A stretch of 38,984 nucleotides of DNA, taken from IMG/VR virus record IMGVR_UViG_2690316241_000009. The stretch is one strand, 5' to 3'. The notes under the pieces are model-generated. The model did no database searches, was not told the DNA's origin, and saw only the letters and a list, made by a program, of their open reading frames with translations. A program made the position numbers and the translations under genes. This DNA comes from a virus (Duplodnaviria; Heunggongvirae; Uroviricota; Caudoviricetes). This document shows positions 3,087 to 30,844 of this stretch, one piece after another; position 1 is the first letter of the stretch, and each line of letters begins with the position of its first letter.

Positions 3087-3347
3087 TTAATTCTTAGGTA
3101 AAGGCAAACTCATCTGATTGTTTCCCCTGTGTGAAGCTGGTAGCTCATGCCACGGGATACCTTCTGAAGAGTGAACGCCGGAGGCGTGTTTCGATGTGAA
3201 TTTATGGAAAGCTTCCAGTGTTGAGAAGCATACGCCGCATTCCAGATTGTTACACTGGTAATATTTTTGCCGCACGGTGTTTGAATCATTTTCCGGACGA
3301 CTTGTGCGGATACGGGCAGATGCGGCACAAAGCGGACAACGGAACAT
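3087..3347 (-). CDS. ogr: Ogr/Delta-family zinc-finger late-gene activator
   Basis: Starts MFRCPLC and has the CxxC...CxxxxC pattern with conserved RTSR and YYQC, matching P2 Ogr. Lies at the prophage end, transcribed outward as in P2. Confidence 0.85.
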   Translation of the reverse strand: MFRCPLCAASARIRTSRPENDSNTVRQKYYQCNNLECGVCFSTLEAFHKFTSKHASGVHSSEGIPWHELPASHRGNNQMSLPLPKN

Positions 3348-3538: not shown

Positions 3539-4561
3539 ATGGGAAGAGATATAACGCTGTACCCTAAAAAAGCAACTAGAAACGAACTTAAAAATTACCT
3601 TGAAAATTTAGGTTTTAAAAGGTGTAAACATTTGTGGGAATGGCCCCAAGGAACGTTGAATTACTCTTGGTTTGATGATACGGACTTCAAATCTACAGAT
3701 GGAGTTTCGGCTGATATATATCCTGTTTCAAATGACGAACTACACATATCTGGTAATAAATGGGCATTGCATGTGCGTAATTTATATAGCGCTAGTTGGC
3801 ATGATGTAAAAATGCTTAATGATGTTCTAAAAGGCGCACGGAGTCTTTTTGGTGGAACACTTATAGGTGATTATGGGAAAAATAGGTACGCTCCTCTATG
3901 GAAGGATTCTAGTAGTCCGATCAGTCGTGGCATTTCTTCAATATTTAATCATGTCCATCATGAGATTTCCGCTGTTAAACATGCCTTACCTGAACCTTCT
4001 ATTAAATTAAACCTACCGGAAGATGGCGGCTTATCCGAATACTTTGATTACATGCAATGTATGGATCCCAGTAGAGTTATATATAATGGATTAGTACCTT
4101 TTGCGGTTGCTATGTTTGAATATTTTTTCTCTAGAGCTTTTCAAATACTTATAAAGTACGATCCTTTCGCAATAGCAAAAAGAACATCGTATAAGCAAAA
4201 AGTTGATTTTGATATTCTGCTTGAGATAGAGAAAGGAAATATTTCAATAGAAAGTGTTATTGCAAGAAATTACACTTTTCAAAACTTAACCCACCTAAAT
4301 AAAGCATATAAAGAGTGGCTGGATATAGATGTGAGAGCGATTCTTTATAAGAAAAAAAGAATTGGAAAATCAGTTGATTTTCTTGAGAATCGAATTTCTG
4401 AAATCATACAATATAGACATGGGATAGTTCATCACTTTGAGTTGGATAGGACCTTAAATCGGGATGGATATATTCATATATTAGATGCGATAGAAAAAAG
4501 CATAATTGAATTTATCCATTACATAGAAGGCAAATACAAATTTAAATTAAATGCGTATTAA
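3539..4561 (+). CDS. AT-rich cargo protein (340 aa), candidate HEPN-like abortive-infection effector
   Basis: Inserted between ogr and D on the opposite strand, with a strongly AT-rich promoter region (3348..3538). C-terminal YRHGIVHH fits the HEPN R-x4-H motif. No P2 counterpart. Confidence 0.6.
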   Translation: MGRDITLYPKKATRNELKNYLENLGFKRCKHLWEWPQGTLNYSWFDDTDFKSTDGVSADIYPVSNDELHISGNKWALHVRNLYSASWHDVKMLNDVLKGARSLFGGTLIGDYGKNRYAPLWKDSSSPISRGISSIFNHVHHEISAVKHALPEPSIKLNLPEDGGLSEYFDYMQCMDPSRVIYNGLVPFAVAMFEYFFSRAFQILIKYDPFAIAKRTSYKQKVDFDILLEIEKGNISIESVIARNYTFQNLTHLNKAYKEWLDIDVRAILYKKKRIGKSVDFLENRISEIIQYRHGIVHHFELDRTLNRDGYIHILDAIEKSIIEFIHYIEGKYKFKLNAY

Positions 4562-4681: not shown

Positions 4682-5791
4682 TCACTCTGTTTCTGCTATC
4701 CATTCCGGGATTTTTGCCTCAAGCTCAAGCTGTGTGGTAAAGCCGCTGTTATCAATGGTGTGCTCGGCTTTTGCAATAATCCAGTCCTGATTATCAATCT
4801 CGCTTTTAAAGCCTGTTACCGTGCCATGCATTTCGGGGTAGAGTTCTGCGCGTCCGCGTGCCAGCATGATGGAGAATGATGCGGCTCCGCGTTGTAGCTG
4901 CTGCCACTTTGCCGCCGCTGCGCGTCTTGCTGCCTGCTCGTTCTGATAAGTCTTGCGTAACACAAACACATTGCCTTCCGCGCCTTCCATATAATCACCT
5001 TCACGGCTGCTGCTTTTCTCCTTTTTGGGTTTTGGCGGTTTGCGGCGTTTCACGCTGACTTTTTTCTTTTTCCCGTAATTAAGATCAAGCCAGTAAGCGC
5101 GTACCCCCGTATACGCCTCGCGGTCAGCAATGCGGAACTGATGGCGATCGCCGCTGCTGCGTGTGATGGCGAACGATGGCAACGGCTGGCCCTGTGCGTT
5201 CACGCCACCGCCGGGCATGATGAATAACAGATTACCGCTTTTTACCGTGGTGATTGCGCCCAGCATTTCCGCCATGCGCGTAAGGAAGGACATGTCACTT
5301 TCTTCGGTCTGGTCGGCGTGGTCGATTTCGATATGCATCAGCATTTCGCTGATTTGCGGTTTCAGACCGTACCGATGAGCGATGGCGGATACCACACGCT
5401 CAACGGTCACATCATGCCAGGACACCTCACGTTTAACGTTAAATTCATCCCGAAAATCTGCGCTTCTGGCTGAAACAGTCAGCCTGTCCGGCGGTCCTTC
5501 GTGTGCGATTTCATCGACAATGTAAGAGCCTTTTTCTGTCAGCGGTTCGCCTTTCCAGCCAATGAGAACCGTCAGGCGCGCGCCCCGTGGCGGTAGCTGC
5601 AACTGACCATCCGCATCATCCAGCGTGATGGTGAGCTGGTCCGCTTCAAATCCCCGGTTGTCGGTCAGTGACAGGCTCATCAGGCGCTCTGCCACGCCTG
5701 ACAGCGTTTTACCCTCCGCGAGAATATCAAAATCCGGCATTTTCACGGGGTCTGTGCTCTGACTGAGCAATTGCATGGTGGTGTCGGTCAT
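4682..5791 (-). CDS. D: Tail protein gpD
   Basis: Matches P2 gpD along its length (MPDFDILAEGKTLSGVAERLMSLSLTDNRGFEADQL..., EGDYMEGAEGNV..., GFTTQLELEAK). Start chosen at MTDTT (5791) because a GGGAGGG Shine-Dalgarno precedes it; the ORF track extends to 5812. Confidence 0.9.
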   Translation of the reverse strand: MTDTTMQLLSQSTDPVKMPDFDILAEGKTLSGVAERLMSLSLTDNRGFEADQLTITLDDADGQLQLPPRGARLTVLIGWKGEPLTEKGSYIVDEIAHEGPPDRLTVSARSADFRDEFNVKREVSWHDVTVERVVSAIAHRYGLKPQISEMLMHIEIDHADQTEESDMSFLTRMAEMLGAITTVKSGNLLFIMPGGGVNAQGQPLPSFAITRSSGDRHQFRIADREAYTGVRAYWLDLNYGKKKKVSVKRRKPPKPKKEKSSSREGDYMEGAEGNVFVLRKTYQNEQAARRAAAAKWQQLQRGAASFSIMLARGRAELYPEMHGTVTGFKSEIDNQDWIIAKAEHTIDNSGFTTQLELEAKIPEWIAETE

Positions 5792-5947
5792 CTTTCCCTC
5801 CCTGTGCGGCATGGTCGCATGTGCGTGCGGAGGGGGTTACTGCTTTTTGTTGTCGCCGGGTCGGGAGAACGGCGCAGGGGTGAGATTACGCGCGTGGTGG
5901 GTGATGATTGTTGCCGAATCATTTAACGGATACAAGGGGCTGAAGCT

Positions 5948-7132
5948 ATGAGTGAAACTCGTTTTCATGGTGCCCGTGTTACGGAAAATACCGACCTGGT
6001 AACAGCGATTAACGATGTTGATTCCAGCGTTATCGGTATCGTGGCAACGGCGGATGATGCGGACGCGAAGCTGTTCCCGCTGAACAAGCCCACACTGCTG
6101 ACCCGCGTCAATGACGTGCTGGGAAAATGCGGGACAACGGGGACGCTTTATCGTGCGCTTAAGGCCATCGCAGACCAGGTGAGCACAAAGGTGATCGTCG
6201 TTCGCGTGGCTGAACACAAAGAAGAAAACGGAAAGACGCAGGATCAACTGGTTATCGGTGGTTCTGAATCTGACGGCAGCTATACGGGGATGTATGCGCT
6301 GCTTGTTGCAGAGCAGGATGAAAGCATCGGATACCGTCCGCGTATTCTGGCCGCGCCGGAGCTGGACACGGAGGCGGTGACAAAATCCCTGTGCGTGATT
6401 GCGGGTAAACTGCGCGCGTTTGTGTATGCCGCATGTCATGGTTGTAACACGATGGCTGAGGCGATTACCTACCGCCAGAAATTCAACGAACGTGAGGTGA
6501 TGCTCTTATGGCCTGACTTCATCGCCTACAACCCGAAAAGTGGCAAAAACGAAACGTTCCCCGCGCCTGCTTATGCGTGCGGCCTTCGTGCGTACATTGA
6601 CCATGAGCAGGGCTGGCACAAATCGCTGTCCAACGTTCCGGTTAAAAATGTGCTGGGGATGTCGAGGCATGTGTTCTGGTCGTTGCAGGCCGAAGACAGC
6701 GATGCCAACAGCCTCAACAACAAAGAAATCACGACCATTATTCGTCGCAACGGGTTCCGCTTCTGGGGCAACCGCACACCGGAAACGAACGCCTACATCT
6801 TTGAGGTGTATACCCGAACCGCACAGGTGCTGGCTGATTCAATTGCGGAAGCGCAGTTTGAAACCATCGACAGTCCACTGACGCCTGCGAACGTGAAAGA
6901 TGTTATCAGTGCCATCAGGGCAAAACTGGATTCACTGGTTACTGCCGGGAAACTGATTGGGGCGTCGTGCTGGTATGACGTGGTGGATAACGGCACCACG
7001 AATTTACGTCAGGGGCGTGTGCGTATTCGCTACAAATATACGCCTGTTCCCCCGCTGGAAGACATGGAGCTTTACCAGTCGTTTACTGATGAATTCTTTG
7101 GTCCCGCATTTGCGGTGCTGGGAGGTGCCTGA
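5948..7132 (+). CDS. FI: Tail sheath protein gpFI
   Basis: Matches P2 FI (FPLNKP, LRAFVYAA, WPDF, EQGWHKSLSNV, GFRFWGNRT, YTPVPPLE). AGGGG Shine-Dalgarno upstream. Confidence 0.9.
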   Translation: MSETRFHGARVTENTDLVTAINDVDSSVIGIVATADDADAKLFPLNKPTLLTRVNDVLGKCGTTGTLYRALKAIADQVSTKVIVVRVAEHKEENGKTQDQLVIGGSESDGSYTGMYALLVAEQDESIGYRPRILAAPELDTEAVTKSLCVIAGKLRAFVYAACHGCNTMAEAITYRQKFNEREVMLLWPDFIAYNPKSGKNETFPAPAYACGLRAYIDHEQGWHKSLSNVPVKNVLGMSRHVFWSLQAEDSDANSLNNKEITTIIRRNGFRFWGNRTPETNAYIFEVYTRTAQVLADSIAEAQFETIDSPLTPANVKDVISAIRAKLDSLVTAGKLIGASCWYDVVDNGTTNLRQGRVRIRYKYTPVPPLEDMELYQSFTDEFFGPAFAVLGGA

Positions 7133-7644
7133 TGGCTGTACCAAAACATCTTCGCTTTTTTACGTTGTTTGTGGATGGTGAAAACGAAGTGGGTAAAGTG
7201 ACATCCGTCACGCCACCCAAACTGACGCGCAAAACCGACAGCTATCGTGGTGGTGGCATGATGGGGGCGGTAAGTATTGATCTCGGTCTGGACGACTCCG
7301 CGCTTGATGCGAGTTTTGTCATGGGGGGAGCTGTTCGTGCGCTGTTCCTTAAATATGGCGGCACGATTGACGGCACGCTGCTGCGTTTTGCGGGTGAATA
7401 CTACACCGATGCAGAAAGCGATCTGTATGAAATCGAGATGCGCGGGCGTGTGACGGAAATTGATATGGGGGAGGCCAAACAGGGCGAAGCCACATCACAC
7501 ACTTACGCTGTCAAAAACACCTACTACAAGCTGAGCGTTAACGATCGCCCGCTGTGGGAAATCGACCTGTTGAACCACATCTACCGGAAGGACGGCAAGG
7601 ACATTGTGCCTGACCGCATTCGTTCCGCGCTTGGGCTTGGCTGA
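7132..7644 (+). CDS. FII: Tail tube protein gpFII
   Basis: Matches P2 FII (KLTRK..YRGGGM, DLGLDD, MRGR..EIDMGEAKQGE). Confidence 0.9.
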   Translation: MAVPKHLRFFTLFVDGENEVGKVTSVTPPKLTRKTDSYRGGGMMGAVSIDLGLDDSALDASFVMGGAVRALFLKYGGTIDGTLLRFAGEYYTDAESDLYEIEMRGRVTEIDMGEAKQGEATSHTYAVKNTYYKLSVNDRPLWEIDLLNHIYRKDGKDIVPDRIRSALGLG

Positions 7645-7699
7645 TAAGTAATATGCAGGCGGCGCAGTGCGTCGCCTCTGACTGAAAAGGAGACAACTG

Positions 7700-8074
7700 A
7701 TGAAAGATATCGATACTGAAACCCGGAATAACACCGTAGCGGATGATGTGACGGCAGGTGAGGATATGGCTGTCGAACGTGGTGTAAAACTTTCCCGGCC
7801 AATTGAGCGTGGTGGCGAAAAAATCACATATGTGGAGATCACCGGGGCTATTGAGCAGGCGGGATCCCTGCGTGGTCTGTCGCTGTCTGATGTGCTGAAT
7901 CTGAAAGCGGATACCATGTTCACGCTGTTGCCTCGCGTGACCTCGCCACGACTGGATGAAGTGATGATTAAAAAAATGTCGTCACGCGATTTTATTCAGT
8001 TGTGCGCTGTGGCTGTAAATTTTATGAGCGAGCCAGACTCTGGCGCGAAGAGCGTGCAGGAGACGGCAGCGTAA
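7700..8074 (+). CDS. E: Tail assembly chaperone gpE
   Basis: Sits between FII and T with an AAGGAG Shine-Dalgarno. A -1 frame ORF overlaps its 3' end, the gpE/E' arrangement. Confidence 0.8.
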   Translation: MKDIDTETRNNTVADDVTAGEDMAVERGVKLSRPIERGGEKITYVEITGAIEQAGSLRGLSLSDVLNLKADTMFTLLPRVTSPRLDEVMIKKMSSRDFIQLCAVAVNFMSEPDSGAKSVQETAA

Positions 8075-8238
8075 TCACCCTGGTGTGCTTTGAGCACATC
8101 GAAGATCTGGTGGCGGATATTGCCGCCATTTTTAACTGGTCGCCCGCCGAAATCTTCATGATGACGCCCGGCGAAGTGGTTAGCTGGCGCGAGCGGGCGG
8201 CACTTCGCAGCGGGAATGCAGACAATGAAGACTCTTGA
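7700..8238 (+). CDS. gpE+E' fusion made by programmed -1 frameshift (predicted)
   Basis: The -1 frame opens immediately after a stop at 7969-7971 and runs to 8238, overlapping the T start. Candidate slippery sites in the E frame are the A7 run at 7970-7976 and A_AAT_TTT at 8017-8023. Confidence 0.55.
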
Positions 8239-11038
8239 TATCCGGGTCGCTTTCAGCGCCGTTGACAGGCTGACCCGGCCTGCCGAAAACGCCCGCCGCC
8301 TGATGGGGCAGTTTGGTGACTCCATCCAGCGAACGCAGGGGGCGATCAAAAATCTCGAGCGTCAGGCGCGTTCATTTGAGCGCGCCCGTGACGCTGTCAG
8401 TAAAGCGGATGCGGGCATCGTGAAAGCACGACGCCAGCTTAACGCCCTTAATCAGTTACAACGCACGGGTACAGTGCTCAGCGAAAAACAACAAAAGCTG
8501 ATGCAGCAGTTAAGCACCCGGCTTGAACGCCTGAATGAATCGCGCACACGGGAAATTCAGAAAATGCGGGAACTTGGCGGAGAGCTGAAACGCCACGGCA
8601 TTTCCCTGACAGGCAGCGATAACACCATCCAGCAGGCCATCAGACGCACCGAACAGTACAACAACCAGCTTGAACGCGAACGGCAGGCGCTTGCGCGTGT
8701 AACGCGGGCGCGTGAGCGGTATTCGCGCGCGCAGGAAACCGCGGGAAAACTGAAAACAGGTGGTGCACTGGCAACAGGTGCGGCAGCGGCGGGCGGCTAT
8801 GCTGCCGGGCGTTTTTTGCAGCCCGCGATTGGGTTCGGGAAAGAGATGTCCCGCGTTCAGGCACTGACGCGAATCGACAAAAACAGCCCACAGTTTAAGG
8901 CGCTGCGTGAGCAGGCGTTAAAACTTGGCTCTGAAACGCAGTTCACCGCTGGAGATGCCGCCAGTGGACAGGCATTTCTTGCAATGGCTGGTTTTACTCC
9001 GCAGGCCATTCAGGCTGCGCTTCCCGGCGTGCTGAGCATGGCAACGGCTGGCGGTATGGATCTCGGCGAGACGGCGGATATTGGCTCAAATATCCTGACG
9101 CAGTTCGGCCTCTCTGCTGACCAGATGGACCGGGTTGGCGACACGCTTACAGCGGCGTTTACCCGTACCAACACTGACCTTCGCGCGCTGGGCGAAACCA
9201 TGAAATATGCAGGTCCGGTGGCGGGTAAGCTGGGAATATCGCTGGAGCAGGCCGCTGCGATGGCGGGCGTGCTGGCGAATATGGGCATCAGAGGGAGTGA
9301 TGCCGGGACGGCAATGCGTGCCAGCCTGGCTCGTCTGGCATCACCGCCAAAGGCGGCAGCAGAGGCGCTGAAAGAGCTGGGTGTGGCTGTCTCTGACGCG
9401 AACGGCAAAATGCGCCCGATGGAGGATGTACTGGCCGACCTTTATAAAGCCACCCGCAAATACGGGGAAGTTGACCGGGTATCGTTCTTTAAGGACATTG
9501 CCGGAGAAGAGGCTTTCACATCGTTTATGGCGCTCGTTGATGCAGCGGGTGACGGCTCCTTACCCAAACTGAGAAAAGAACTTGAAGGCGCGCGCGGTGA
9601 GGCTGAACGCACAGCAAAGGTTATGGACAACAACCTTGACGGCGATCTGAAATCACTCGGCAGTGCATGGGAAGGGTTGCGCATCCGCATTGCAGATCTG
9701 ATTGACGGTCCGCTGCGTTCTGTCACGCAGTGGCTCACGCGGGTGGTATCAAAGGTGACGGCGCTGGCGCAGGCCCATCCGGCACTGACGCGCCAGCTAC
9801 TGATTGCAGGTGGGGCATTGCTGGCGATGACTGCAACGGTCGGCTCGTTGTCGTTGGCTATTGGTGTGCTTGCTGGCCCGCTGGCAAAACTGCGTCTTGG
9901 CTTTTCCCTCCTGACCGGATCAATGAATGCTGTCAGGCTCCTGCCAGCACTATGGGGAATGGTGACGGGTTCCGTTTCGTTACTGGGGGGCGCTATCGGG
10001 GCGCTGTTCAGCCCGGTCGGATTGATTGCTGCTGCGTTTGTGGCTGCGGCGGTTCTCATCTGGAAATACTGGGAACCCATCAAGGCGTTTTATGCAGGGG
10101 TGTTCAGTGGGATTATGGAACGGCTGGCTCCGTTGCGCGAAACCTTTGAACGGTTCGGTCCAGTTTTTGATGTCGTGCGCGATGGGATTATTCAGGTCTT
10201 TAACTGGTTTAAATCGCTGCTGTCACCGATGGAGTCCAGCAAGGAAACGCTGGATAAATGTACCAGTGCTGGCGAGGTATTCGGCAGGGTACTCGGTGGA
10301 GCGATAGAGCTTGTCCTGACGCCAACAAAAGCATTGATGGATTCACTGGCGTGGATACTTGAAAAGCTCGGAGTGCTTCCGGATGAAGCGGAACGGGCGA
10401 GAAAGAAAATAGAGAACGCTTCAAAGGCTCCTGTAATGTGGGAATGGGATCCGGTTCTCAAGAAAATGGTTCAGAAACCATGGACTCCCGGCCCGGCCCC
10501 GTCAGATAAGGTCGACGACAAAAAAGGCGATAAACCCAGAGACAACAAACCGCTCACAGACAACAATACCGGTACGCTACGCAGACTCAGCAAAATTGCT
10601 GATAACACAGGTAAGCTGGTTGATGAGACGAAAAAACGCATTGGCCCCGGCGATATTGTCTTTAAGAACCTGCCCCGCGCACTTGCTGTTCGTGGGGAGT
10701 GGCAGGAGCGGAAGATTGCGCAGGTCAGTAAGCCTGCCCCCGCAATTACTATCACACCCGTGGTTCCGGCTCCGCTGCCTCCGGCGCTGGTCCCTGTTGT
10801 TGCGGCCAGCTCCCGCCCGGTGGCGGAGGCTATACGATCGCCAGTGGCATCAGTTCCTGCAACTTCCCGTAACCGGGAGCCTGTTGCCTCCGGATTTGGC
10901 GGTGAAATTCATGTTCATCTGCATAACGTTGTTACACAGAATCCCCGCGAACTGGCGAAACTGATTGGCGAAATGGTCAGGGCAGAAATGGAACGGCGCG
11001 CCCGTGCCGGGCGTGGCAGTTTTTACGATAAAGATTGA
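8216..11038 (+). CDS. T: Tail tape-measure protein gpT
   Basis: 940-aa protein with a coiled-coil N-terminus, a Gly/Ala-rich hydrophobic central region and a Pro-rich C-terminus, in the T position after E/E'. Confidence 0.9.
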   Translation: MQTMKTLDIRVAFSAVDRLTRPAENARRLMGQFGDSIQRTQGAIKNLERQARSFERARDAVSKADAGIVKARRQLNALNQLQRTGTVLSEKQQKLMQQLSTRLERLNESRTREIQKMRELGGELKRHGISLTGSDNTIQQAIRRTEQYNNQLERERQALARVTRARERYSRAQETAGKLKTGGALATGAAAAGGYAAGRFLQPAIGFGKEMSRVQALTRIDKNSPQFKALREQALKLGSETQFTAGDAASGQAFLAMAGFTPQAIQAALPGVLSMATAGGMDLGETADIGSNILTQFGLSADQMDRVGDTLTAAFTRTNTDLRALGETMKYAGPVAGKLGISLEQAAAMAGVLANMGIRGSDAGTAMRASLARLASPPKAAAEALKELGVAVSDANGKMRPMEDVLADLYKATRKYGEVDRVSFFKDIAGEEAFTSFMALVDAAGDGSLPKLRKELEGARGEAERTAKVMDNNLDGDLKSLGSAWEGLRIRIADLIDGPLRSVTQWLTRVVSKVTALAQAHPALTRQLLIAGGALLAMTATVGSLSLAIGVLAGPLAKLRLGFSLLTGSMNAVRLLPALWGMVTGSVSLLGGAIGALFSPVGLIAAAFVAAAVLIWKYWEPIKAFYAGVFSGIMERLAPLRETFERFGPVFDVVRDGIIQVFNWFKSLLSPMESSKETLDKCTSAGEVFGRVLGGAIELVLTPTKALMDSLAWILEKLGVLPDEAERARKKIENASKAPVMWEWDPVLKKMVQKPWTPGPAPSDKVDDKKGDKPRDNKPLTDNNTGTLRRLSKIADNTGKLVDETKKRIGPGDIVFKNLPRALAVRGEWQERKIAQVSKPAPAITITPVVPAPLPPALVPVVAASSRPVAEAIRSPVASVPATSRNREPVASGFGGEIHVHLHNVVTQNPRELAKLIGEMVRAEMERRARAGRGSFYDKD

Positions 11039-11044
11039 GGAGTC

Positions 11045-11539
11045 ATGGCCATGATGATGATCTACGGCATGTTTGTTTTTGAGCTGCGCACATTGCCGCA
11101 TCAGCAGTTACAGCAAAACAAAAGCTGGCGGCATGTGAAAAATGAACGCGTTAACCGTTCAGCAAGCTGGCAGTATATCGGCGCAGGTGATGATCGCATC
11201 GTGCTTTCCGGCGTGCTTTATCCTGAAATTACAGGTGGCGAAGTGTCGCTTTCGTTGCTGACCACGCAGGCATATACAGGACGCCCCTGGCCTCTGATTG
11301 ATGGTGTCGGGCAGATTTACGGCATGTATGTACTGACTGAAACGAATACGACCCGTTCCGAGTTTGATCGCTACGGCAAGGCGAAAAAGATAGAGTTTTC
11401 ACTGACTCTTGAACGCTGCGATGAGGATTTGCGGGAACGCCTGCAATCCTCATCGTTCAGTGATATGCTGTCCGGCTTCAAAGATAAGGTCACATCATCC
11501 CTTAACAGCGCGGCCAGCTCCGTTAAAGGGCTGTTCTGA
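11045..11539 (+). CDS. U: Tail protein gpU
   Basis: Starts MAMMMIYGMFVFEL, resembling the P2 gpU N-terminus (MMMVLGLFVF). GAGGAG Shine-Dalgarno upstream. Confidence 0.85.
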   Translation: MAMMMIYGMFVFELRTLPHQQLQQNKSWRHVKNERVNRSASWQYIGAGDDRIVLSGVLYPEITGGEVSLSLLTTQAYTGRPWPLIDGVGQIYGMYVLTETNTTRSEFDRYGKAKKIEFSLTLERCDEDLRERLQSSSFSDMLSGFKDKVTSSLNSAASSVKGLF

Positions 11540-11542
11540 TTT

Positions 11543-11584
11543 AACACAAAAACCGCTAATGGCCAGATTAGCGGTTATTTTGTT
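11543..11584. terminator. Bidirectional intrinsic terminator between U and the invertase gene
   Basis: Perfect 10-bp stem (aaccgctaat / attagcggtt) with a 6-nt loop, A-run on one side and T-rich on the other, between two convergent genes. Confidence 0.7.
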
Positions 11585-12176
11585 TACTCTTCTCAATTGT
11601 TCCACTTGATTCTCCTGCGGGGTGGTAACGATAAATTGTCGATATACCAATGCTGTAAATTATTGCCAGTTGTTTTCTGTCGTGACCGTTTTTAATCAGC
11701 CTTGCTATTTGCTCATGCTGTTCTTTTGTCAGCTTCGGTCGACGTCCGCCTGTGCGCCCCCGTGCGCGCGCTGCCGCCAGTCCGGCCAGTGTACGTTCAA
11801 CAATTAATTCACGTTCCATTTCAGCCAGGGCACCCATCACGTGGAAGAAAAAACGCCCCATTGGAGAAGATGTATCTATGCTGTCGGTCAGACTGCGAAA
11901 ATTAATCCCTCGCTCCCGTAGTTCTCCGACGAGAGAAATCAGATGTTTCATGCTTCGCCCAAGGCGATCCAGTTTCCAGACAACCAGCGTGTCACCTTTT
12001 TGAAGCTGCTTTAAAGCGCGTTTTAATCCCGGTCGGTCTGTCTTTGTTCCGCTTAATTTATCTTCAAATATTTGTTCACATCCTGCACAAACAAGAGCGT
12101 TTCGTTGCAGGTCTGTATTCTGGTCATTTGTTGATACCCTTACATAACCAATCAGCACACTGAATCTCCCGTCCAA
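11568..12176 (-). CDS. Serine-recombinase DNA invertase (Hin/Gin/Pin/Cin family)
   Basis: N-terminus LIGYVRVSTNDQNTDLQRNAL carries the catalytic Ser motif. GDTLVVWKLDRLGRS and FFFHVMGALAEMERELIVERTLAGL match Hin/Gin closely. C-terminal HTH present. Confidence 0.9.
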   Translation of the reverse strand: MDGRFSVLIGYVRVSTNDQNTDLQRNALVCAGCEQIFEDKLSGTKTDRPGLKRALKQLQKGDTLVVWKLDRLGRSMKHLISLVGELRERGINFRSLTDSIDTSSPMGRFFFHVMGALAEMERELIVERTLAGLAAARARGRTGGRRPKLTKEQHEQIARLIKNGHDRKQLAIIYSIGISTIYRYHPAGESSGTIEKSKQNNR

Positions 12177-12212
12177 AAGCGCAAATCATGCCATGCAGGC
12201 CGGAAACGGCCA

Positions 12213-12238
12213 TTATCTAAAACCTCGGTTTACAGGAA
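12213..12238. repeat. gix/hix-like 26-bp inversion site, invertase-proximal
   Basis: ttatctaaaacc-TC-ggtttacaggaa, close to the Gin/Hin crossover consensus. Reverse-complement partner at 15165..15190 matches at 24 of 26 positions. Confidence 0.8.
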
Positions 12239-12283
12239 ACGGTAAACAAGGCTGGTAACGCCGTTCAGCGTTCCGGCGATAAA

Positions 12284-13126
12284 ATGACCGGAGAACTGAA
12301 AATTGGAACGATGAATGCGCTGCGAATTTTTAATGATGCCTTCGGTCTTATTTTCCGCCGTTCAGAAGAGTCCCTTCATTTCATCCCTACGGCTGAAGGA
12401 CAAGGCGAAAACGGTGATATCGGCCCATTAAGGCCATTCGCTATAAATCTAAGAACAGGTGCTATATATGTCAGCCACGGGGCCAAAATTGAAGGAGGTC
12501 TAGCTATTGGTGCTACTGATAACGCACTGGGTGAAAACTCCATTGTTCTGGGAGATAACGACACCGGATTTAGGCAAGATGGAGATGGTATTATTAGCTT
12601 CTATTCAAATGGTTCGCGCATCGGACATATTGATGGGTTAGGATTACATCTTTATAAAGATATTGAATCTAATTGCAGCAATTTTAGATTAAAAAGTAAT
12701 TACCGCCACCACATTACATTCACCAACGAAGACGGAAGTATTCGTATGTTTTTGTGGAAAGATAACGGTGGTGATGGTGTTCATATTAATAACGGTTCAG
12801 ATGGTGGTGGTGATTTCATTTTTAAAACAGATGGGGGATTTGCGCTGGGAAGTGGTGCGCAAGTTGCGTCTAGTGGCGATATTTATGGTTCAGTGTGGGG
12901 AAACAACTGGTTAAGCACATGGCTGCATAATCATGTCGTTCGGGATATTCGTCTTGGCAGCATTGAATATAAAAACGTATGGCGCGACTACGGCTTTGGC
13001 GATGCGTCAGGTTATGTTTTAACAGCCGCAATTAACGGCAATGCGGATGATCTTGTCGACACTGTTGCCAGAAGGCCAATTCAGAAATTGATTGGGGGAA
13101 TATGGTACAACGTGGGGAGTGTTTAA
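12284..13126 (+). CDS. Alternative tail-fibre C-terminal cassette (silent in this orientation)
   Basis: The frame is open back to the crossover site and encodes ...LGLQETVNKAG..., paralleling ...LGLQETVNQAS... in H. C-terminus ([18 protein letters not shown]) resembles the H C-terminus. No promoter or N-terminus of its own. Confidence 0.7.
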
Positions 13127-13127
13127 G

Positions 13128-13655
13128 ATGATGCACTTAAAAAATATTACTGCTGGCAACCCTAAAACAAAAGAACAATACCAGCTAACTGAAAAAGCGG
13201 GCGTGGTATGGCTCTTTTGCGAAGATGGCAAAAACTGGTATGAGGAACAAAAGAATTTTCAGCCAGACACCATAAAAATTGCTTACGATGAGAACAACAT
13301 CATCGTTGCTGTCAGTAAAGACGTTTCAACTATTAATCCTGAAGGGCTAAGCATAGTTGAAGTTCCTGATATTACGGCAAATCGTCGCGCAGACAATAAC
13401 GGAAAATGGATGTTTCTGTATGGTAAAGTAGTAAAGAGGGAATATACAGAACAGGAACTGCAACAACAGGCCGAATCACAAAAGGCCGCGTTGCTTTCTG
13501 AAGCAGAAAGCGTTATTCAGCCACTGGAACGCGCTGTCAGGCTGAACATGGCAACAGATGAGGAGCGTAGCCGACTGGAAGCATGGGAGCGCTACAGTGT
13601 TCTGGTCAGCCGTGTGGATACGGCAAATCCTGAATGGCCACAAAAGCCTGAATAA
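13128..13655 (+). CDS. Alternative tail-fibre assembly chaperone (Tfa/gpG-like)
   Basis: Starts [21 protein letters not shown], identical over about 20 residues to the other tfa and then diverging. Follows the alternative fibre cassette. Confidence 0.8.
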
Positions 13656-13683
13656 AAATTAAGGCCCGATAGCGGGCCTTGTC

Positions 13684-14217
13684 TCATTCTGGTTGTTCTG
13701 GAAACGTTACTGGCAGGCTGGAGGTGTCTGTAGATTCGACTTTCTGCGCATAGAGCATCCACTCGGTTAATTTTTGTTTATTCTCGTCGGAAATGATGCC
13801 CAGCCGTAGCTGTGAGTCCCATAGCTGGGTTTTATCCCTGACAAGTTGCAACAGGCTTTGCTTTTCATTTTCCGCCTGTTGCCTCTGCTCTTCCCCGGTA
13901 TAAGTTCGCTTTATCACTGCGCCATCTTTGAACATCCATTTACCCGAAATATCAGCCCGGCGATTTGCTGTAATATCAGGTAATTCAACGACGCTTGCGC
14001 CTTCCGGATTAATTGCTGAAACATCCTTTTCAATACAAATAATAACGCCGTTATGGTCATAGGCCATTTTCAATGTGTCTGGCCGGAAATTCTTTTGTTC
14101 CTCATACCAGTTTTTTCCATCATCTGAATAAAGCCATTTGATGTTAAATTGCTTTGTTAGCTGGTATTGCTCTTTTGTTTTAGGATTGCCAGCAGTAATG
14201 TTTTTTAAGTGCATCAT
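13684..14217 (-). CDS. G: Tail-fibre assembly chaperone (Tfa/gpG-like), currently expressed orientation
   Basis: Starts [22 protein letters not shown] and lies immediately downstream of H on the same strand. Confidence 0.85.
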   Translation of the reverse strand: MMHLKNITAGNPKTKEQYQLTKQFNIKWLYSDDGKNWYEEQKNFRPDTLKMAYDHNGVIICIEKDVSAINPEGASVVELPDITANRRADISGKWMFKDGAVIKRTYTGEEQRQQAENEKQSLLQLVRDKTQLWDSQLRLGIISDENKQKLTEWMLYAQKVESTDTSSLPVTFPEQPE

Positions 14218-14219
14218 AA

Positions 14220-16310
14220 TTAAATACTCCCTGCGTTATACCACGTTCCATTAATGCAATACTGAATTGGCCTTGCCTGAGTTGTATCAATTAATTCATC
14301 ACGGTTTCCGTTAACTGAACCAGTAACGACATAACCTGACCTGTCAGACCAGCCAGGACCATTCCATGTCTGAACAGATGACAGACCGCCAAGGCGAATA
14401 CCTGTAATAAACCTTGAGTTACATTCTGCCTGCGTATATGCACCAACATCTCCCGCAGAGGGTTTGCGTGTTGTGGTGTAAAACTCTGACCAGTTAGCTT
14501 CAAAGCCATAACCATCACGCGCTGAACGATAAAAGATACCGCCATTTCTGTAATTCACGCGGAACTGTACAGCAGGGCAACTCCCCGCATTCATATTAAA
14601 GTGGAGGATTAATGTCGATGCGCCACTGATATCTGCATTATAAACGCCGCTATTCCAGTTCCAGCCAACAGCTTTATCATTTGCAACCCTGCTTCCTGTT
14701 TGCCCTAAAGCAAATGCAGGCTGCTGGTTTTTCGTGTTGTAGTCTCGTCGCCAGCCAGGAGCGTAAGCATCACCATGATTAATATAAGTGAATTGAGCGT
14801 TAGTGATTCCGCCGCCGCTGGACGTACTCGGCGTGGTAACGCGTATGGTCATTGCGCCGCGAGTGCCAATAACTTCCACCACAGCACCTGCAAGACAAAT
14901 ATTTCCGCAACCTGTATCTGTAATGACCTTATTGTTTGCATAAGCCCATGAGCCTTTGCACATCCAGTAAGGATGGTTAAATGCTCCCTGACTCTCCAGC
15001 CACGAAATAAATTGCGCGGTTGTCCAGACCTGACTATCACCACCAATATTCAGCCATGCGCTATATGCGCGGCAGGCACCAATATTTTTGGTGAAGGTAT
15101 CTTTTCCTGGAATATCTGCGCCGTTCTGGTTTTTCTGTAATGCGCCAGAAGCCTGATTTACCGTTTCCTGTAAACCGAGGTATTCGATAACAGCGGCAAC
15201 GGTCGATTTCGCAAGAATATCCCGCCCGACTTCTGTCAGGGTTGCCAAACTGGCAACGTCATTCCCCGTAAAATACGGAAACCTGTCTGCCGCAGTAACA
15301 AGCCCGGCCAGCGCCGTCAGGGTGGCATCTTTCGGTTGCTTACCCGCAAGCGCGTTAGTCATGGTGGTCGCAAAATTCGGGTCATTGCCCAGCGCCGCAG
15401 CCAGTTCGCTCAGCGTGTTTAGTGCATCAGGTGACGAATCTACAAGTGCGGCAATCGCGGCCATAACGAAAGCCGTGCTTGCGATCTGGGTACTATTAGT
15501 CCCCTGTGGCGCTGTTGGTGTTGTTGGCGTTCCGGTCAGTGCCGGGCTGTTTAATGGTGCTTTCTTGTTCGTTTCATCCATTACCGCCTTAACAGCTTTT
15601 GGTGTTGCTGCCAGCGTTTCAGACGTGCTGTTCGTGGCGCTACTGAGCTGAACAATCCCTTTTTGTGTTGTGGTGGCGTTCTGGGCGGTATATTTCCCGT
15701 CAGCCAGGTCATATGCAGCCTTAACTGCTTTCGGTGTTGCGGCCAGTGTTTCTGATTCACTGTTAATTGCACTGCTTAACTGAGTAAAACCTTTTGCGGT
15801 CAGCGAGGCGTCCGGGTGATGTCGTGACTGTTCGTGCTCTGAGATTTTATCATCCACATATTTGCGGGTTGCCAGAACCACAGACGGGTCGATTTTCAGC
15901 GTGATGGCTTCGGTGTTCGTGACAACCAGAATCATGCGGATAGTCTGGGTACGACCACTGCCTTCCTGCAACTGCGGTTTGTACGTTTCCGGGCAGTTTG
16001 CCACCGCAATGAGTACACCTTCATCATCATAAAGACCAATCTCACGGATCCAGAATCCTCCCTCGTTTTCAGGGATGATTTGCTCCGCAATAATCTGGCT
16101 CTGATTGTTAGGGTCAACACTCAGAAGATTCAGCGGTGCAATGCGTTTCTGGTTAATCAGTTTTGTTTGTGCAGGGTCTGGTGTTGGTAACACACCATTT
16201 GCATCACCAACGGCCATTTGCGTCAGATTCAGCTTACTGCCGAGCATCGTCGCGTTAGCCAGTCGTGCCGCGCCCTGATTAGTCAGAATGGCGTAGTATT
16301 TCACTGTCAT
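14220..16310 (-). CDS. H: Tail fibre protein gpH
   Basis: 696-aa protein; N-terminal third resembles P2 H and contains tandem tail-fibre repeats. The variable C-terminal part (from about residue 374) lies inside the invertible segment. Confidence 0.9.
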   Translation of the reverse strand: MTVKYYAILTNQGAARLANATMLGSKLNLTQMAVGDANGVLPTPDPAQTKLINQKRIAPLNLLSVDPNNQSQIIAEQIIPENEGGFWIREIGLYDDEGVLIAVANCPETYKPQLQEGSGRTQTIRMILVVTNTEAITLKIDPSVVLATRKYVDDKISEHEQSRHHPDASLTAKGFTQLSSAINSESETLAATPKAVKAAYDLADGKYTAQNATTTQKGIVQLSSATNSTSETLAATPKAVKAVMDETNKKAPLNSPALTGTPTTPTAPQGTNSTQIASTAFVMAAIAALVDSSPDALNTLSELAAALGNDPNFATTMTNALAGKQPKDATLTALAGLVTAADRFPYFTGNDVASLATLTEVGRDILAKSTVAAVIEYLGLQETVNQASGALQKNQNGADIPGKDTFTKNIGACRAYSAWLNIGGDSQVWTTAQFISWLESQGAFNHPYWMCKGSWAYANNKVITDTGCGNICLAGAVVEVIGTRGAMTIRVTTPSTSSGGGITNAQFTYINHGDAYAPGWRRDYNTKNQQPAFALGQTGSRVANDKAVGWNWNSGVYNADISGASTLILHFNMNAGSCPAVQFRVNYRNGGIFYRSARDGYGFEANWSEFYTTTRKPSAGDVGAYTQAECNSRFITGIRLGGLSSVQTWNGPGWSDRSGYVVTGSVNGNRDELIDTTQARPIQYCINGTWYNAGSI
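15165..15190. repeat. gix/hix-like 26-bp inversion site inside H
   Basis: ttcctgtaaacc-GA-ggtattcgataa on the plus strand; the inner half and centre are identical to the reverse complement of site 12213..12238. It encodes IEYLGLQE in H. Confidence 0.8.
15584..15791. repeat. Tandem ~132-bp coding repeat inside H
   Basis: Two copies encoding G(F/I)(T/V)QLSSA..SETLAATPKAVKA.. (residues ~174-250), a known tail-fibre repeat type. Confidence 0.6.
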
Positions 16311-16915
16311 GCGTTTACTCTCAGATTATCAATTAAATGAATGGCCGGGGCAGGGAAATAGTCCCCTTCGACAATAATGGACTCCGGGGTGTAGGGATAA
16401 ACCGTCAGGGCATCGCCGTGATAGCATCCCGTACCAACGAAAATCTTTCCGTTCACACTCAGGCTGATCGCCAGCCCCGTCAGATGGCGACTTACTGGTT
16501 TTGCATCCGCAATAAGGCGCTCAAGTTCCTGATACATTTCATCGGTGATGCCCTGATCAAGTACTCCGACAACAATGCGAAATGTTCCCGGCTCCTCGTT
16601 GAGTTGCCACCACTCCTTTACTTCAATCAGGTAACCGAGAGGCTCCACGGCTCTTCGCAGTGCGCTGATGGTCCCTTTGTGTCGGTGTATCAGCCATGCA
16701 TCACGAATCACCTGTCGCTTTGTCTCTTCCGGCCAGTTGCGATCCCAGCGGTCAACGGAAAACGCCCAGGCGAGATAAGGCAGCAGATGCACCGGGCAGG
16801 TGTCCGGCGACCACAGCGTGTTGAGGTCTACCGGAATGTCTGTAATGCGTGTTCCGACGGCTTCGGCACAACGCATGAAATTGCTGGCTGATGGTGGTAA
16901 CAACGAATTACTCAT
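16307..16915 (-). CDS. I: Baseplate assembly protein gpI
   Basis: Sits between J and H as in P2. Start taken at MSNSLLPP, which overlaps the J stop. Confidence 0.8.
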   Translation of the reverse strand: MSNSLLPPSASNFMRCAEAVGTRITDIPVDLNTLWSPDTCPVHLLPYLAWAFSVDRWDRNWPEETKRQVIRDAWLIHRHKGTISALRRAVEPLGYLIEVKEWWQLNEEPGTFRIVVGVLDQGITDEMYQELERLIADAKPVSRHLTGLAISLSVNGKIFVGTGCYHGDALTVYPYTPESIIVEGDYFPAPAIHLIDNLRVNA

Positions 16916-17804
16916 TGCGCCCACCTTCGCTGATGGTGAATGACTCACAGCGCGCCGCCTGTATGTCGCTGATGGCCATATTCTGTGTGGGTTCGATTAT
17001 CTCCACGCGTTGCACACCGTGCACATGCAGTGCGGCAGCAATGGCGGACAACGCCACGTCCTGACCGATAAGCCCCTGCTCAGCCAGCCACTTCCTGAAC
17101 GACGATTCAGCCGCGGCCAGAATAGGTTCGGATTCCGGGCCGGGGTAAAAGTACAGTTTTGCATTCAGCCGCCATGTCACGATTCTGGCGCTCTGTACGG
17201 TCAGGCGGTCGGCCACCGGACGGGTATCCTCTGCATTCAGAACGGCGCGAACGGTATTAAGCAACGCCTCCGTTGCTGTGCCGTCGCCTTCAGTGGACAG
17301 AATGGAAACCGTCACACAGGCCGGAGACGGGCTGATGGCCCGCGCATCACGCACCAGACCGCTGGCGCTGCGTGCAAAATACTCGTATGCACCTGACGGG
17401 CCAGCAACACTCAGGCCATCGTACGCCCGCTGTGCCCGCAGTCTCAGCGAGGTGTCACTTTCCATCACTGCGTCGGTGGTATCCGTTGCCGGAGTGATGG
17501 TCAGGCGCTTTGTGTTCATATTGCCCGCGAGGTTGTCCAGGTCTGTCCCGGCGCTGTGGCTTAACATGCAGGCGCGTGCCCCCTCATTGACCCGCTGGCG
17601 TAACAGCATTTCACGAAACGCTGTTGTCTGGGCGATAACGTTCAGGGGTTCCGATTCCAGCTCCAGCGCGGCGGAGACGGCTTCACGCTGTTCGGCGGGA
17701 TAAGCCGCAATCATCATGGCCTTTGTGTCAGCCAGAATTGCCTCAAAGTCAGGCTCCGCGATGATGGCGGGTTCCGGTAACTGGGAAAGGTCAACGGCGG
17801 GCAT
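16908..17804 (-). CDS. J: Baseplate protein gpJ
   Basis: 298-aa protein in the conserved V-W-J-I order; size matches P2 J (~302 aa). Confidence 0.85.
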   Translation of the reverse strand: MPAVDLSQLPEPAIIAEPDFEAILADTKAMMIAAYPAEQREAVSAALELESEPLNVIAQTTAFREMLLRQRVNEGARACMLSHSAGTDLDNLAGNMNTKRLTITPATDTTDAVMESDTSLRLRAQRAYDGLSVAGPSGAYEYFARSASGLVRDARAISPSPACVTVSILSTEGDGTATEALLNTVRAVLNAEDTRPVADRLTVQSARIVTWRLNAKLYFYPGPESEPILAAAESSFRKWLAEQGLIGQDVALSAIAAALHVHGVQRVEIIEPTQNMAISDIQAARCESFTISEGGRNE

Positions 17805-17807
17805 GAT

Positions 17808-18158
17808 TTACTCCTTCAGCGTGATGGTTAACTCAACATTCTGCATGGTCTGCATGACAGTGCCCGACAGCGTCACCCCGGCGCGGCCTCCCGCTTTCCA
17901 GACAACGTCGATGGCGTCCAGGGCAATGCGGGGTTCCCATCGTGTCAGCGCAATCACGGCAGCACTCATGCATTGCAGACGAGTTGTGTTATTCATGGGT
18001 TCGTCAATCAAATCAGGCACAAGGCTGCCATATTCCCGTCGCATAACCCGGCTTGCCAGCGGGGTGATCAGGATGTCCCTGACTGACTGTTTCAGGTGCT
18101 CCATATCGTTCAGGTTTCCCGTCCCGTCCGGATTCATTCCTGTGTAGCGGGTTGTCAC
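17808..18158 (-). CDS. W: Baseplate wedge protein gpW
   Basis: 116-aa protein in the W position between V and J, matching P2 W in size. Confidence 0.85.
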   Translation of the reverse strand: MTTRYTGMNPDGTGNLNDMEHLKQSVRDILITPLASRVMRREYGSLVPDLIDEPMNNTTRLQCMSAAVIALTRWEPRIALDAIDVVWKAGGRAGVTLSGTVMQTMQNVELTITLKE

Positions 18159-29981: not shown

Positions 29982-29998
29982 CTATATCATCCTTAAAT

Positions 29999-30844
29999 TT
30001 AAATGTCAGGGATTTTTATACCATGATTATAAATGATAATTTCTAGACCTTTTTTCTTATCTTGTGCAGTATAATTAAGCGTATAATCAGTCATGTTGAA
30101 TTCATGATATATGCTTTTTATTTCAGGCACATTGTCATAAGACACAACCCAAGGTAGTTGAATTTCCCGTAGTGTATTAGCGATTTTTACATGATCATCA
30201 TGTTTATAAAAATTTCTATATAACTCTGCTCCTTTAACATAATAAGGTGGATCAAGATATATTAGACTATTTTGGGGTAGCAATGCTTTTTGGTGTAGCA
30301 GAAAATCTACAGCATCAAAATTCGATACGTAAATTTTCTCCTTATATGCACCAATTAGTTCAATCCTTTTAATTAACTCTTTTTTGTTGAATCTTGCATC
30401 TAACTTCCATGGTCCTTTTTGTTCTTTCCCTCCAATAACGCCAGCCTTAAGTATTCCTGAACGGTTTGTTCTATTTAAAAAGAAAGTTGATAATGCGACT
30501 TCAAGCATACTATATTTATCATTGTTTAGGAGTATCTCCTTTTGAGTATGCCAATTTTCAATAGTCACAGGAACTTCATCAATCATTTCACATAACAGAT
30601 CGTTATGATTAACCACTGCAAACCAAAAAGAATAAAGGGCAGGATCAATATCATTTATGAAGATATTTTCAACAAGACCGTTAAGGAGCAAACCTAATGC
30701 TACACCGGCTCCACCTGCATAAGGTTCAGCATAACATCCACCAATGAGATCATTGTTGCGGAGTATTTGTTCAATATGTGGCAAGAATTTTGCCTTACCT
30801 CCCGGATAACGAAGAGGGGTTCTAAAATGAGAAGGCTTTGTCAT
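29999..30844 (-). CDS. Dam-family (D12 class) N6-adenine DNA methyltransferase
   Basis: N-terminal RYPGGK, AdoMet-binding EPYAGGAGV and catalytic DPPY motifs. AT-rich. Lies 17 bp upstream of the ATPase on the same strand. Confidence 0.85.
   Translation of the reverse strand: MTKPSHFRTPLRYPGGKAKFLPHIEQILRNNDLIGGCYAEPYAGGAGVALGLLLNGLVENIFINDIDPALYSFWFAVVNHNDLLCEMIDEVPVTIENWHTQKEILLNNDKYSMLEVALSTFFLNRTNRSGILKAGVIGGKEQKGPWKLDARFNKKELIKRIELIGAYKEKIYVSNFDAVDFLLHQKALLPQNSLIYLDPPYYVKGAELYRNFYKHDDHVKIANTLREIQLPWVVSYDNVPEIKSIYHEFNMTDYTLNYTAQDKKKGLEIIIYNHGIKIPDI

Follow-up and report, generated by a model that had tools for sequence, protein, structure and literature searches.

Layout of the fibre locus

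The window, i.e., the whole stretch of 38,984 bp that was analyzed, carries P2-type genes recognized by Pfam (GpU, GPD, sheath and GPA) and an ogr-like ORF, and the RefSeq annotation of a 99.7% identical region agrees with a P2-like assignment. Judged by these genes, the gene order and the DNA similarity to P88, the prophage is assigned to Xuanwuvirus (P88-like Peduoviridae). ORFs for capsid, terminase, portal, lysis, replication and integrase genes are intact, and the prophage, which lies beside flk, is apparently complete. The features of its fibre locus are as follows:

11551–11576, no strand: bidirectional terminator-like hairpin (terminator scan on both strands; also an inverted repeat in the repeat search)
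11568–12158, minus strand: Gin-type serine DNA invertase, 196 aa from the likely start GTG 12158 (Pfam, identity to Mu Gin)
12051–12137, minus strand: candidate Fis-dependent recombinational enhancer in the invertase 5′ coding region (gene nt 22–108)
12213–12238, plus strand: left crossover site (gix-like), 26-bp core TTATCTAAAACCTCGGTTTACAGGAA, central TC at 12225–12226
12227–13126, plus strand: silent alternative fibre C-terminus, 299 aa, Pfam gp37_trimer
13128–13655, plus strand: silent tail-fibre assembly chaperone, partner of the alternative tip, 175 aa, Pfam Caudo_TAP (1.7e-35)
13661–13680, no strand: GC-rich hairpin between the convergent tfa genes (hairpin/terminator scan)
13684–14217, minus strand: tail-fibre assembly chaperone, now expressed, 177 aa, Pfam Caudo_TAP (1.7e-36)
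14220–15176, minus strand: variable C-terminus of H, now expressed, residues 379–696, Mu S′v-like
15165–15190, minus strand: right crossover site (gix-like), 26-bp core TTATCGAATACCTCGGTTTACAGGAA (15190–15165), central TC at 15178–15177
15177–16310, minus strand: constant N-terminal part of fibre gene H with its start codon, residues 1–378, outside the segment

Between the outer edges of both sites the segment measures 2,978 bp (12213–15190). The gixL and gixR sites of Mu, taken from the annotated G-segment boundaries in NC_000929, are identical to each other (TTATCCAAAACCTCGGTTTACAGGAA); the left site of the window has one mismatch to them, and the right site has two, both in the outer half-site. 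The two 26-bp cores differ from each other at two positions and have the central TC in common; they form a pair of inverted, imperfectly palindromic sites with an identical 2-bp core, as is characteristic of Fis/enhancer-dependent invertases. Repeat similarity extends past the cores, being almost perfect across ~41 nt (12213–12253 vs. 15190–15150), and the repeat search returned inverted arms of 56 nt (12213–12268 and 15135–15190) that are 80% complementary. Searching the 38,984-bp window and 100 shuffles with the Mu gix pattern (at most three mismatches) gave two matches in the window, the left and right sites, and none in the shuffles. No third crossover site of the shufflon type was found in the window at this threshold, and a multiple-inversion system (shufflon-like, such as Min of p15B or the three-repeat EPEC P2 locus) was ruled out because the window has only two sites.

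These results confirm the segment length and the gix-matching 26-bp repeats given in the initial annotation, which had also placed the second site inside H at about codon 374; the site begins in codon 374 and extends to codon 382, with Leu378 as the crossover centre. The left site had been called promoter-proximal. It does lie 55–80 nt upstream of the invertase start, but a sigma-70 scan found no promoter, with a site count no higher than in shuffles and nothing upstream of the invertase, and therefore we make no promoter claim for this gene.

The constant part of H runs on from the upstream genes I, J, W and V, and has the Pfam Phage_tail_fib N-terminal domain and Phage_fiber_2 repeats. The tip currently joined to it is 97.5% identical to Mu S′v over 318 aa, and the accompanying chaperone is 95.5% identical to Mu U′. 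In the present orientation, the alternative tip is blocked by an in-frame TAA (12218–12220); its nearest relative among sequenced phages is just 45.6% identical at the protein level, and its chaperone is 81.7% identical to Mu U. Inverting the segment in silico yields an in-frame H of 677 aa, compared to 696 aa at present, in which the silent tip makes up residues 379–677, and reproduces the predicted fusion ...IEYLGLQETVN-KAGNAVQ... Two fibre C-termini and two tfa chaperones in opposite orientations, as first described, were recovered as ORFs with Caudo_TAP matches to the chaperones. The locus therefore has the arrangement of a Mu G-type switch, i.e., a constant N-terminus outside the segment, opposed tip and chaperone pairs, and fusion in frame in both states. 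The hairpin at 13661–13680 likely terminates the fibre operon. RefSeq labels the silent tip in one of two ways, either as a “tail fiber protein” of 280 aa that stands alone or as a pseudogene (“missing N-terminus”).

The invertase and its candidate enhancer

The invertase ORF spans 11568–12176 on the minus strand, with TTG 12176 as an alternative start; the GTG at 12158 is the likely start, and RefSeq begins the identical protein there, under the name “recombinase family protein” only. The hairpin at 11551–11576 sits between this gene and the convergent gene U. With 196 aa, an N-terminal resolvase catalytic domain (Pfam Resolvase, 1.1e-50) and a C-terminal helix-turn-helix (HTH_7, 6.2e-13), the protein fits the small (~190 aa) serine recombinases. 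Its identity to Mu Gin is 84.5%; it matches PDB 4m6f (Gin) with E=9e-101 and can be aligned over its full length with the Gin structures 4m6f and 3uj3, in line with the Hin/Gin-family assignment made initially. The catalytic serine, Ser9, sits in the motif YVRVSTNDQ. Residues specific to Fis/enhancer-dependent invertases have been listed for Hin as R43, K47, K/R48 and K/R51, and Q151, R154 and L155 (PMC3798978); K47, K/R48, K/R51, Q151, R154 and L155 serve as contacts to Fis and the enhancer. By these criteria, and with an offset of −1, the window's invertase has R42, K46, R47 and K50 in place of the first group (Hin R43, K47, R48 and K51) and Q150, R153 and L154 in place of the second.

At the DNA level, the gene is 194/200 identical to Mu gin over nt 1–200 and 122/123 identical over nt 13–135, so any Mu enhancer located in the latter stretch is retained. 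The same 5′ region contains two pairs of G-N13-C 15-mers at a spacing of 48–49 bp, centred at +29/+78 and +53/+101. Putative Fis sites were assigned from this spacing and from the identity to Mu gin, by which the exact Fis cores are inferred as well. After nt 330, identity to Mu gin falls to only 58%, i.e., the DNA-binding domain has diverged from Gin.

Orientations in other genomes and the proposed switch

Comparison with E. coli E300082, which carries the same prophage, gave three pieces for the native window, with 12213–15190 reversed and both breakpoints inside the repeats, whereas the window flipped in silico aligned as a single ungapped block of 8,001 bp at 99.45% identity. In E300082 the alternative tip is fused to H, and the annotated fibre agrees with the predicted flipped H at 676 of 677 residues. 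In the E110019 assembly, a sister prophage with the same two 26-bp sites and the same flk-adjacent position as in the window is present in both orientations, one on the chromosome and the other on an alternative contig; the flanks of these two copies are 99.96% identical, and the middle 3,097 bp are inverted. The contig described as extrachromosomal is thus nothing other than the second orientation of the chromosomal prophage. Both H-tip junctions are widespread: with at least 80% of the query covered, E. coli genomes with the flipped junction number 240 and those with the native one 126. Natural flipped copies in E300082 and the two states in E110019 support the earlier proposal that the segment would invert.

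Taken together, we consider it very probable that the locus works as a tail-fibre switch of the Mu G type with two states, driven by the invertase, in a P88-like prophage (Xuanwuvirus, Peduoviridae) that appears complete and lies beside flk. The right gix-like site splits H such that codons 1–378 and the late promoter stay fixed; the segment carries two promoterless tip and chaperone cassettes face to face, with the invertase just beyond the left site. Catalysis, Fis dependence, the switching rate and the consequence for host range are what we infer, following the model established for Gin and Hin. The invertase would bind both 26-bp sites, assisted by host Fis on the enhancer in the 5′ part of its gene, and staggered cuts at the central TC, subunit rotation and religation would leave the segment inverted. 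In the present state, H has the Mu S′v-like tip and is co-expressed with the U′-like chaperone, and in the flipped state, H (677 aa) has the different tip and is co-expressed with the U-like chaperone. The virions that a lysogen population releases would thus be of two kinds, differing in receptor specificity.

Alternatively, the locus might be a fossil of a Mu-like ancestral cassette, in which inversion was lost through the invertase, its expression or the right site, leaving the fibre locked in the S′v-like form. The two mismatches of the right site to Mu gix, the diverged DNA-binding domain, the promoter scan that found none for the invertase, and the orientation of the two closest genomes (99.7% identity), which is that of the window, are all compatible with such a loss. 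However, the invertase ORF is undisrupted, and a genome in the flipped state encodes the identical protein (which occurs in both FDAARGOS_1059 and E300082); the ORFs of the silent tip and of its chaperone are intact as well, and one assembly, that of E110019, contains the same site pair in both orientations. We regard a locked fibre as improbable.

It is less probable still that the ~41-bp inverted repeats underwent RecA-dependent homologous recombination and that this, rather than a site-specific invertase, produced the orientation differences. The near-perfect match over ~41 nt would permit it, and the genome comparisons resolve the breakpoints no further than to the repeats; however, ~41 nt is short for efficient RecA recombination, the internal repeats, which are longer and more similar (62 nt at 95%; 277 nt at 70%), have not rearranged correspondingly in E300082 or E110019, and a complete Gin-type invertase adjoins the segment, whose 26-bp sites match and share their core dinucleotide. 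Equally improbable is a switch that chiefly benefits the bacterium, which would gain variety in a tailocin-like particle or a surface property, rather than phage host range, as in the speculation of Goldberg et al. on prophage invertons (PMC4272514), given that the capsid, terminase, portal, lysis, replication and integrase ORFs are intact and the prophage is therefore not a head-less tailocin cluster.

The silent tip (12227–13126) may encode a receptor specificity absent from all sequenced phages, and the invertase may be a natural chimera of a Gin catalytic domain and another DNA-binding domain that is co-adapted to the asymmetric right site. The prophage could also flip other gix- or pix-type segments of the same genome in trans. 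Taken as a whole, this reading is rather doubtful.

Comparison with known inversion systems

The gene order of P2 is H, G, fun(Z), FI...U, D, ogr, with all late operons co-directional. In the window, as in P88, the genes after the invertase are U, T, E, FII and FI, encoded on the other strand; the FI–U tail operon is reversed in Xuanwuvirus relative to P2. The initial annotation's view that the cassette replaces the Z/fun cargo position of P2 thus holds only loosely, as what follows is a reversed operon on the opposite strand. Neither gix-like sites nor inverted repeats were found flanking the reversed FI–U block, and the idea that the invertase now controls this inversion, or visibly created it, was dropped for lack of third or flanking sites.

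Xuanwuvirus P88 (NC_026014) and Escherichia phages 520873 and 503458 have the same order of H, tfa, tfa′, tip′ and invertase, followed, as in the window, by U-T-E-FII-FI on the opposite strand and then D. The matched parts are 89–92% identical to the window in DNA, and a “DNA invertase” and fibre genes are already annotated there, whereas tip combinations and orientation states differ from those of the window. The P88 paper studied fibre host-range determinants and nowhere mentions inversion, and neither this paper nor a literature search on the genus yielded a description of inversion in Xuanwuvirus.

Among P2-like prophages, swapping of fibre C-termini by an invertase and inverted repeats was demonstrated experimentally in EPEC E2348/69, in which clonal cultures hold both fibre states together (Goldberg et al., 2014, PMC4272514). 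However, the EPEC loci have pin-type repeats (AAACCTTGGTTTGGGAGAA) and segments of ~1.9–2.2 kb (PMC4272514), and one of them has three repeats and four states, in contrast to the gix-type sites of the window, of which there are only two. Because of the pin-type repeats, we rejected these loci as the same cassette.

The P1/P7 C segment (Cin), the e14 P segment (Pin) and Salmonella Hin belong to the same Fis/enhancer-dependent family with 26-bp sites, although their sites are of other types (cix, pix and hix). Trans-complementation between these invertases is established. The tips and chaperones of the P1/P7 C segment are 86–92% identical in DNA to the window at 13100–15150. Salmonella Hin acts by promoter control, unlike the gene fusion in the window.

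The topology of the window is that of the Mu G segment with Gin, i.e., a constant fibre N-terminus, a site, two convergent tip and chaperone cassettes, a second site and the invertase, which in both phages is transcribed away from the segment. The differences are that in the window the constant part has an N-terminus of the P2 H type (collar domain), where Mu has Sc, that the silent tip is not Mu Sv (similarity is limited to the first 24 and the last ~67 residues), and that the host phage is P2-like and integrating, whereas Mu is transposable. The switch adds no new mechanism, and its value beyond correct annotation is small, although for phage host-range prediction such prophages should each be counted as encoding two fibres. 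It is the Mu G/gin module within a phage genus that was already described; its kind is known, and its sequence nearly so.

Crossover sites and contents of the segment

The tail-fibre switching cassette that the initial annotation had placed beside an invertase was recovered in the ORF list and in a repeat search of the window, which together put a serine recombinase gene next to an inverted repeat with arms at 12213-12268 and 15135-15190. The features of the module are as follows.

11568-12176, minus strand: serine recombinase (invertase) ORF, 202 codons
12213-12238, plus strand: left 26-bp core, TTATCTAAAACCTCGGTTTACAGGAA, central dinucleotide TC
12227-13126, plus strand: second, silent fibre tip, inside the segment
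13128-13655, plus strand: chaperone after the silent tip (Caudo_TAP)
13661-13680: GC-rich hairpin between the two chaperone genes
13684-14217, minus strand: chaperone after the present H tip (Caudo_TAP)
14220-15176, minus strand: present C-terminus of H, inside the segment
14220-16310, minus strand: tail fibre gene H, 696 codons
15190-15165, minus strand: right 26-bp core, TTATCGAATACCTCGGTTTACAGGAA, central dinucleotide TC

The sites had been likened to the gix/hix type, and since gixL and gixR of phage Mu, taken from NC_000929 at the annotated G-segment boundaries, both read TTATCCAAAACCTCGGTTTACAGGAA, the window sites have one and two mismatches to gix. Allowing up to three mismatches, the gix pattern occurred only at these two sites of the window and never in 100 shuffles, and the switch is therefore of the simple two-state form. 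The outer edges of the sites enclose 2,978 bp, and the right site starts in codon 374 of H.

The segment consists of two tip-plus-chaperone cassettes facing each other, so that the two alternative C-termini and the two oppositely oriented chaperones of the first reading are borne out by the ORFs and the Caudo_TAP matches. The silent tip and the left site share a reading frame, and the TAA that precedes the tip (12218-12220) lies outside the crossover point. Reverse complementing 12226-15177 in silico fused codon 378 of H to the silent tip and gave an uninterrupted H of 677 amino acids with the junction ...IEYLGLQETVNKAGNAVQ..., exactly the in-frame fusion that had been predicted.

Identity to Mu proteins is 97.5% for the expressed tip (S'v), 95.5% for its chaperone (U') and 81.7% for the silent chaperone (U). 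These matches place the window in the state equivalent to Mu G(-). The similarity of the silent tip to Mu S is confined to the first 24 and last ~67 residues, and across 50,697 phage records its nearest relative (45.6% identical) is found in Yersinia Mu-like phages. In RefSeq, the silent tip is named either a stand-alone 280-aa 'tail fiber protein' starting from an internal ATG or a pseudogene 'missing N-terminus' (window 12284-13126; compared locus L003, 8396-9355); both annotations are artefacts of the overlooked invertible segment.

The chaperone genes also form internal inverted repeats, at 13128-13189/14156-14217 (62 nt, 95%) and at 13208-13484/13861-14137 (277 nt, 70%). These could in principle allow a homologous inversion that exchanges chaperones between the tips; neither E300082 nor E110019, the two E. 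coli strains compared, shows such a variant.

Orientation of the segment in E. coli genomes

We queried 5,426 complete E. coli genomes with two H-tip junctions, the native one and the one flipped in silico. At a query coverage of at least 80%, the flipped junction was present in 240 genomes and the native one in 126. In E300082, the flipped junction matched with 99.9% identity across all 802 nt. The fibre gene of this strain (2,034 nt, 677 aa) is followed by a U-like chaperone, by a U'-like chaperone and an S'v-like 'tail fiber protein, missing N-terminus' on the other strand, and finally by the same invertase. With the segment flipped, window positions 10000-18000 aligned to E300082 as a single ungapped block of 8,001 bp (99.45%), whereas the native window aligned in three pieces, the middle one being exactly 12213-15190, reversed, and the pieces overlapping solely inside 41-nt repeats. 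Of the 677 residues of the predicted flipped H, all but one agree with the annotated E300082 protein. The native state is found in FDAARGOS_1059, whose prophage has 99.7% DNA identity to the window.

In the assembly of E110019, a sister prophage is present twice, on the chromosome and on a 25-kb linear 'extrachromosomal' contig, with 99.96% identical flanks, an inverted middle of 3,097 bp and the same two 26-bp sites as in the window. The contig also carries flk, chromosomal flank and a chromosomal transporter gene, and is taken as an alternative contig of the same locus because of flk and this flank. The most plausible reading of these sequences is that both states were present together in the E110019 culture that was sequenced. 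The records concerned, NZ_CP035755.1 (contig) and NZ_CP035751.1 3149941-3163055 (chromosome), match except that the fibre segment is inverted and a few indels are present, and NZ_CP035755.1 looks like an alternative assembly contig arising from inversion heterogeneity rather than a replicon.

The orientation differences might alternatively result from RecA recombination between the 41-nt repeats. This is disfavoured, since the longer internal inverted homologies of the chaperone genes are without corresponding rearrangements in E300082 and E110019. That the window holds a locked, fossil switch is unlikely given its intact ORFs and the occurrence of the same sites and the same invertase in both states; the window, FDAARGOS_1059 and E300082 have one and the same invertase protein. 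A tailocin role is also unlikely, as head, packaging and replication genes are intact.

Several E. coli genomes (e.g., WS1933D, RM8843-C1 and MSI001) carry at least two related P88-type cassettes in opposite states in the same chromosome, and it is therefore plausible that the invertases of co-resident cassettes act in trans on each other's segments.

Invertase and predicted switching mechanism

The likely start of the invertase is the GTG at 12158, giving 196 amino acids, the start that RefSeq also assigns to the identical protein WP_000905050.1. The protein matches the Pfam families Resolvase (1.1e-50) and HTH_7 (6.2e-13) and is 84.5% identical to Mu Gin. Over residues 1-183 it aligns (E about 1e-100) with 4m6f and 3uj3, the sequences of Gin crystal structures; near identity over the first ~113 residues gives way to a more diverged DNA-binding domain. 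The gene follows the same gradient at the DNA level, with 122/123 positions identical to Mu gin over nt 13-135, 194/200 over nt 1-200, and a drop to 58% identity beyond nt 330. No invertase promoter was identified in a promoter scan of the window.

By analogy with Gin and Hin, dimers of the invertase would bind both sites, and the tetramer would be activated by Fis bound to an enhancer in the 5' portion of the invertase gene. Attack by Ser9 at the 2-bp core, subunit rotation and religation would follow, the last needing identical cores; both cores in the window are TC and hence identical. Two pairs of G-N13-C 15-mers, 48-49 bp apart, are candidate Fis sites in the invertase gene, centred on gene nt +29/+78 and +53/+101, and the first pair is the probable homologue of the hin Fis sites. 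All the residues reported by McLean et al. as uniquely conserved in Fis/enhancer-dependent invertases (PMC3798978) are found in the window invertase. The title of Kahmann et al. (1985), cited in PMC3798978, places the Mu enhancer inside the invertase gene. The conserved residues and the near identity of the gin 5' region to that of Mu support Fis dependence.

H would be transcribed from the upstream late operon, and only the cassette facing H would be expressed, with the hairpin at 13661-13680 probably ending the fibre transcript.

Carrier phage and known invertible fibre loci

The module is surrounded by P2-type genes (GpU, GPD, sheath, tube, tape measure, I, J, W and V, as well as capsid, terminase, portal, GPA, ogr and int). 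The nearest matches among phage records, Escherichia phages 520873 and 503458 and P88, all belong to Xuanwuvirus (Peduoviridae); they share the layout of the window, and a 'DNA invertase' is already annotated in them. P2 has the gene order V W J I H G, followed by fun(Z) and then by FI FII E T U D ogr, with co-directional late operons and U directly followed by D, whereas in the window and P88 the genes FI-FII-E-T-U occupy the opposite strand from H and D.

4682-5812, minus strand: D
5948-11539, plus strand: FI-FII-E-T-U tail operon, opposite to H...V and D
11551-11576: bidirectional hairpin between U and the invertase

Therefore, the suggestion that the cassette replaces the Z/fun position of P2 holds only approximately, because the FI-U block is reversed relative to P2 and, as a consequence, the invertase converges on U. 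The reversal is also seen in P88 and phage 520873, and is thus a trait of the genus; in the window, the block is flanked by neither gix-like sites nor inverted repeats.

Other genes of the window include a low-GC island (~0.31-0.34) at 28284-30844, which separates the portal gene from replication gene A. The island encodes a 565-aa AAA/SMC-like ATPase with weak matches to many defence ATPases (PtuA, GajA, AriA) and a 281-aa D12 N6-adenine methyltransferase (PADLOC PD-Lambda-5_B, 8.7e-122), and is probably defence cargo at a P2-type hotspot. Between an ogr-like gene (3087-3347, minus strand) and D lies a 340-aa ORF (3539-4561, plus strand; GC ~0.39-0.41), whose sole match is a sub-threshold Pfam HEPN RiboL-PSP hit (1.2e-4), with none in PADLOC. 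It is missing from the FDAARGOS_1059 prophage, where D is truncated instead. Low-GC genes at 1264-2896, between flk (1-996) and the prophage end, are also annotated by RefSeq in FDAARGOS_1059.

1264-2157: TagO/VasI-like protein
2162-2494: zinc-ribbon membrane protein
2756-2896: Hok/Gef-like 46-aa ORF

Comparison with Mu, as proposed initially, matched the invertase, the expressed tip, the chaperones and the sites to Mu parts; the module is the Mu G segment with gin, set in another phage. Both the G segment and its invertase Gin are textbook knowledge, and PMC10434027 gives a summary. Our literature search found no paper on inversion specifically in P88-like phages. In EPEC E2348/69, Goldberg et al. 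demonstrated by sequencing and PCR that the invertible fibre loci of one Mu prophage and two P2-like prophages occur in both, or in four, states side by side in clonal cultures (PMC4272514); the P2-like loci there have pin-type repeats. Since its parts are 92-98% identical to those of Mu and already annotated in RefSeq, the switch in the window is real and already known in kind.
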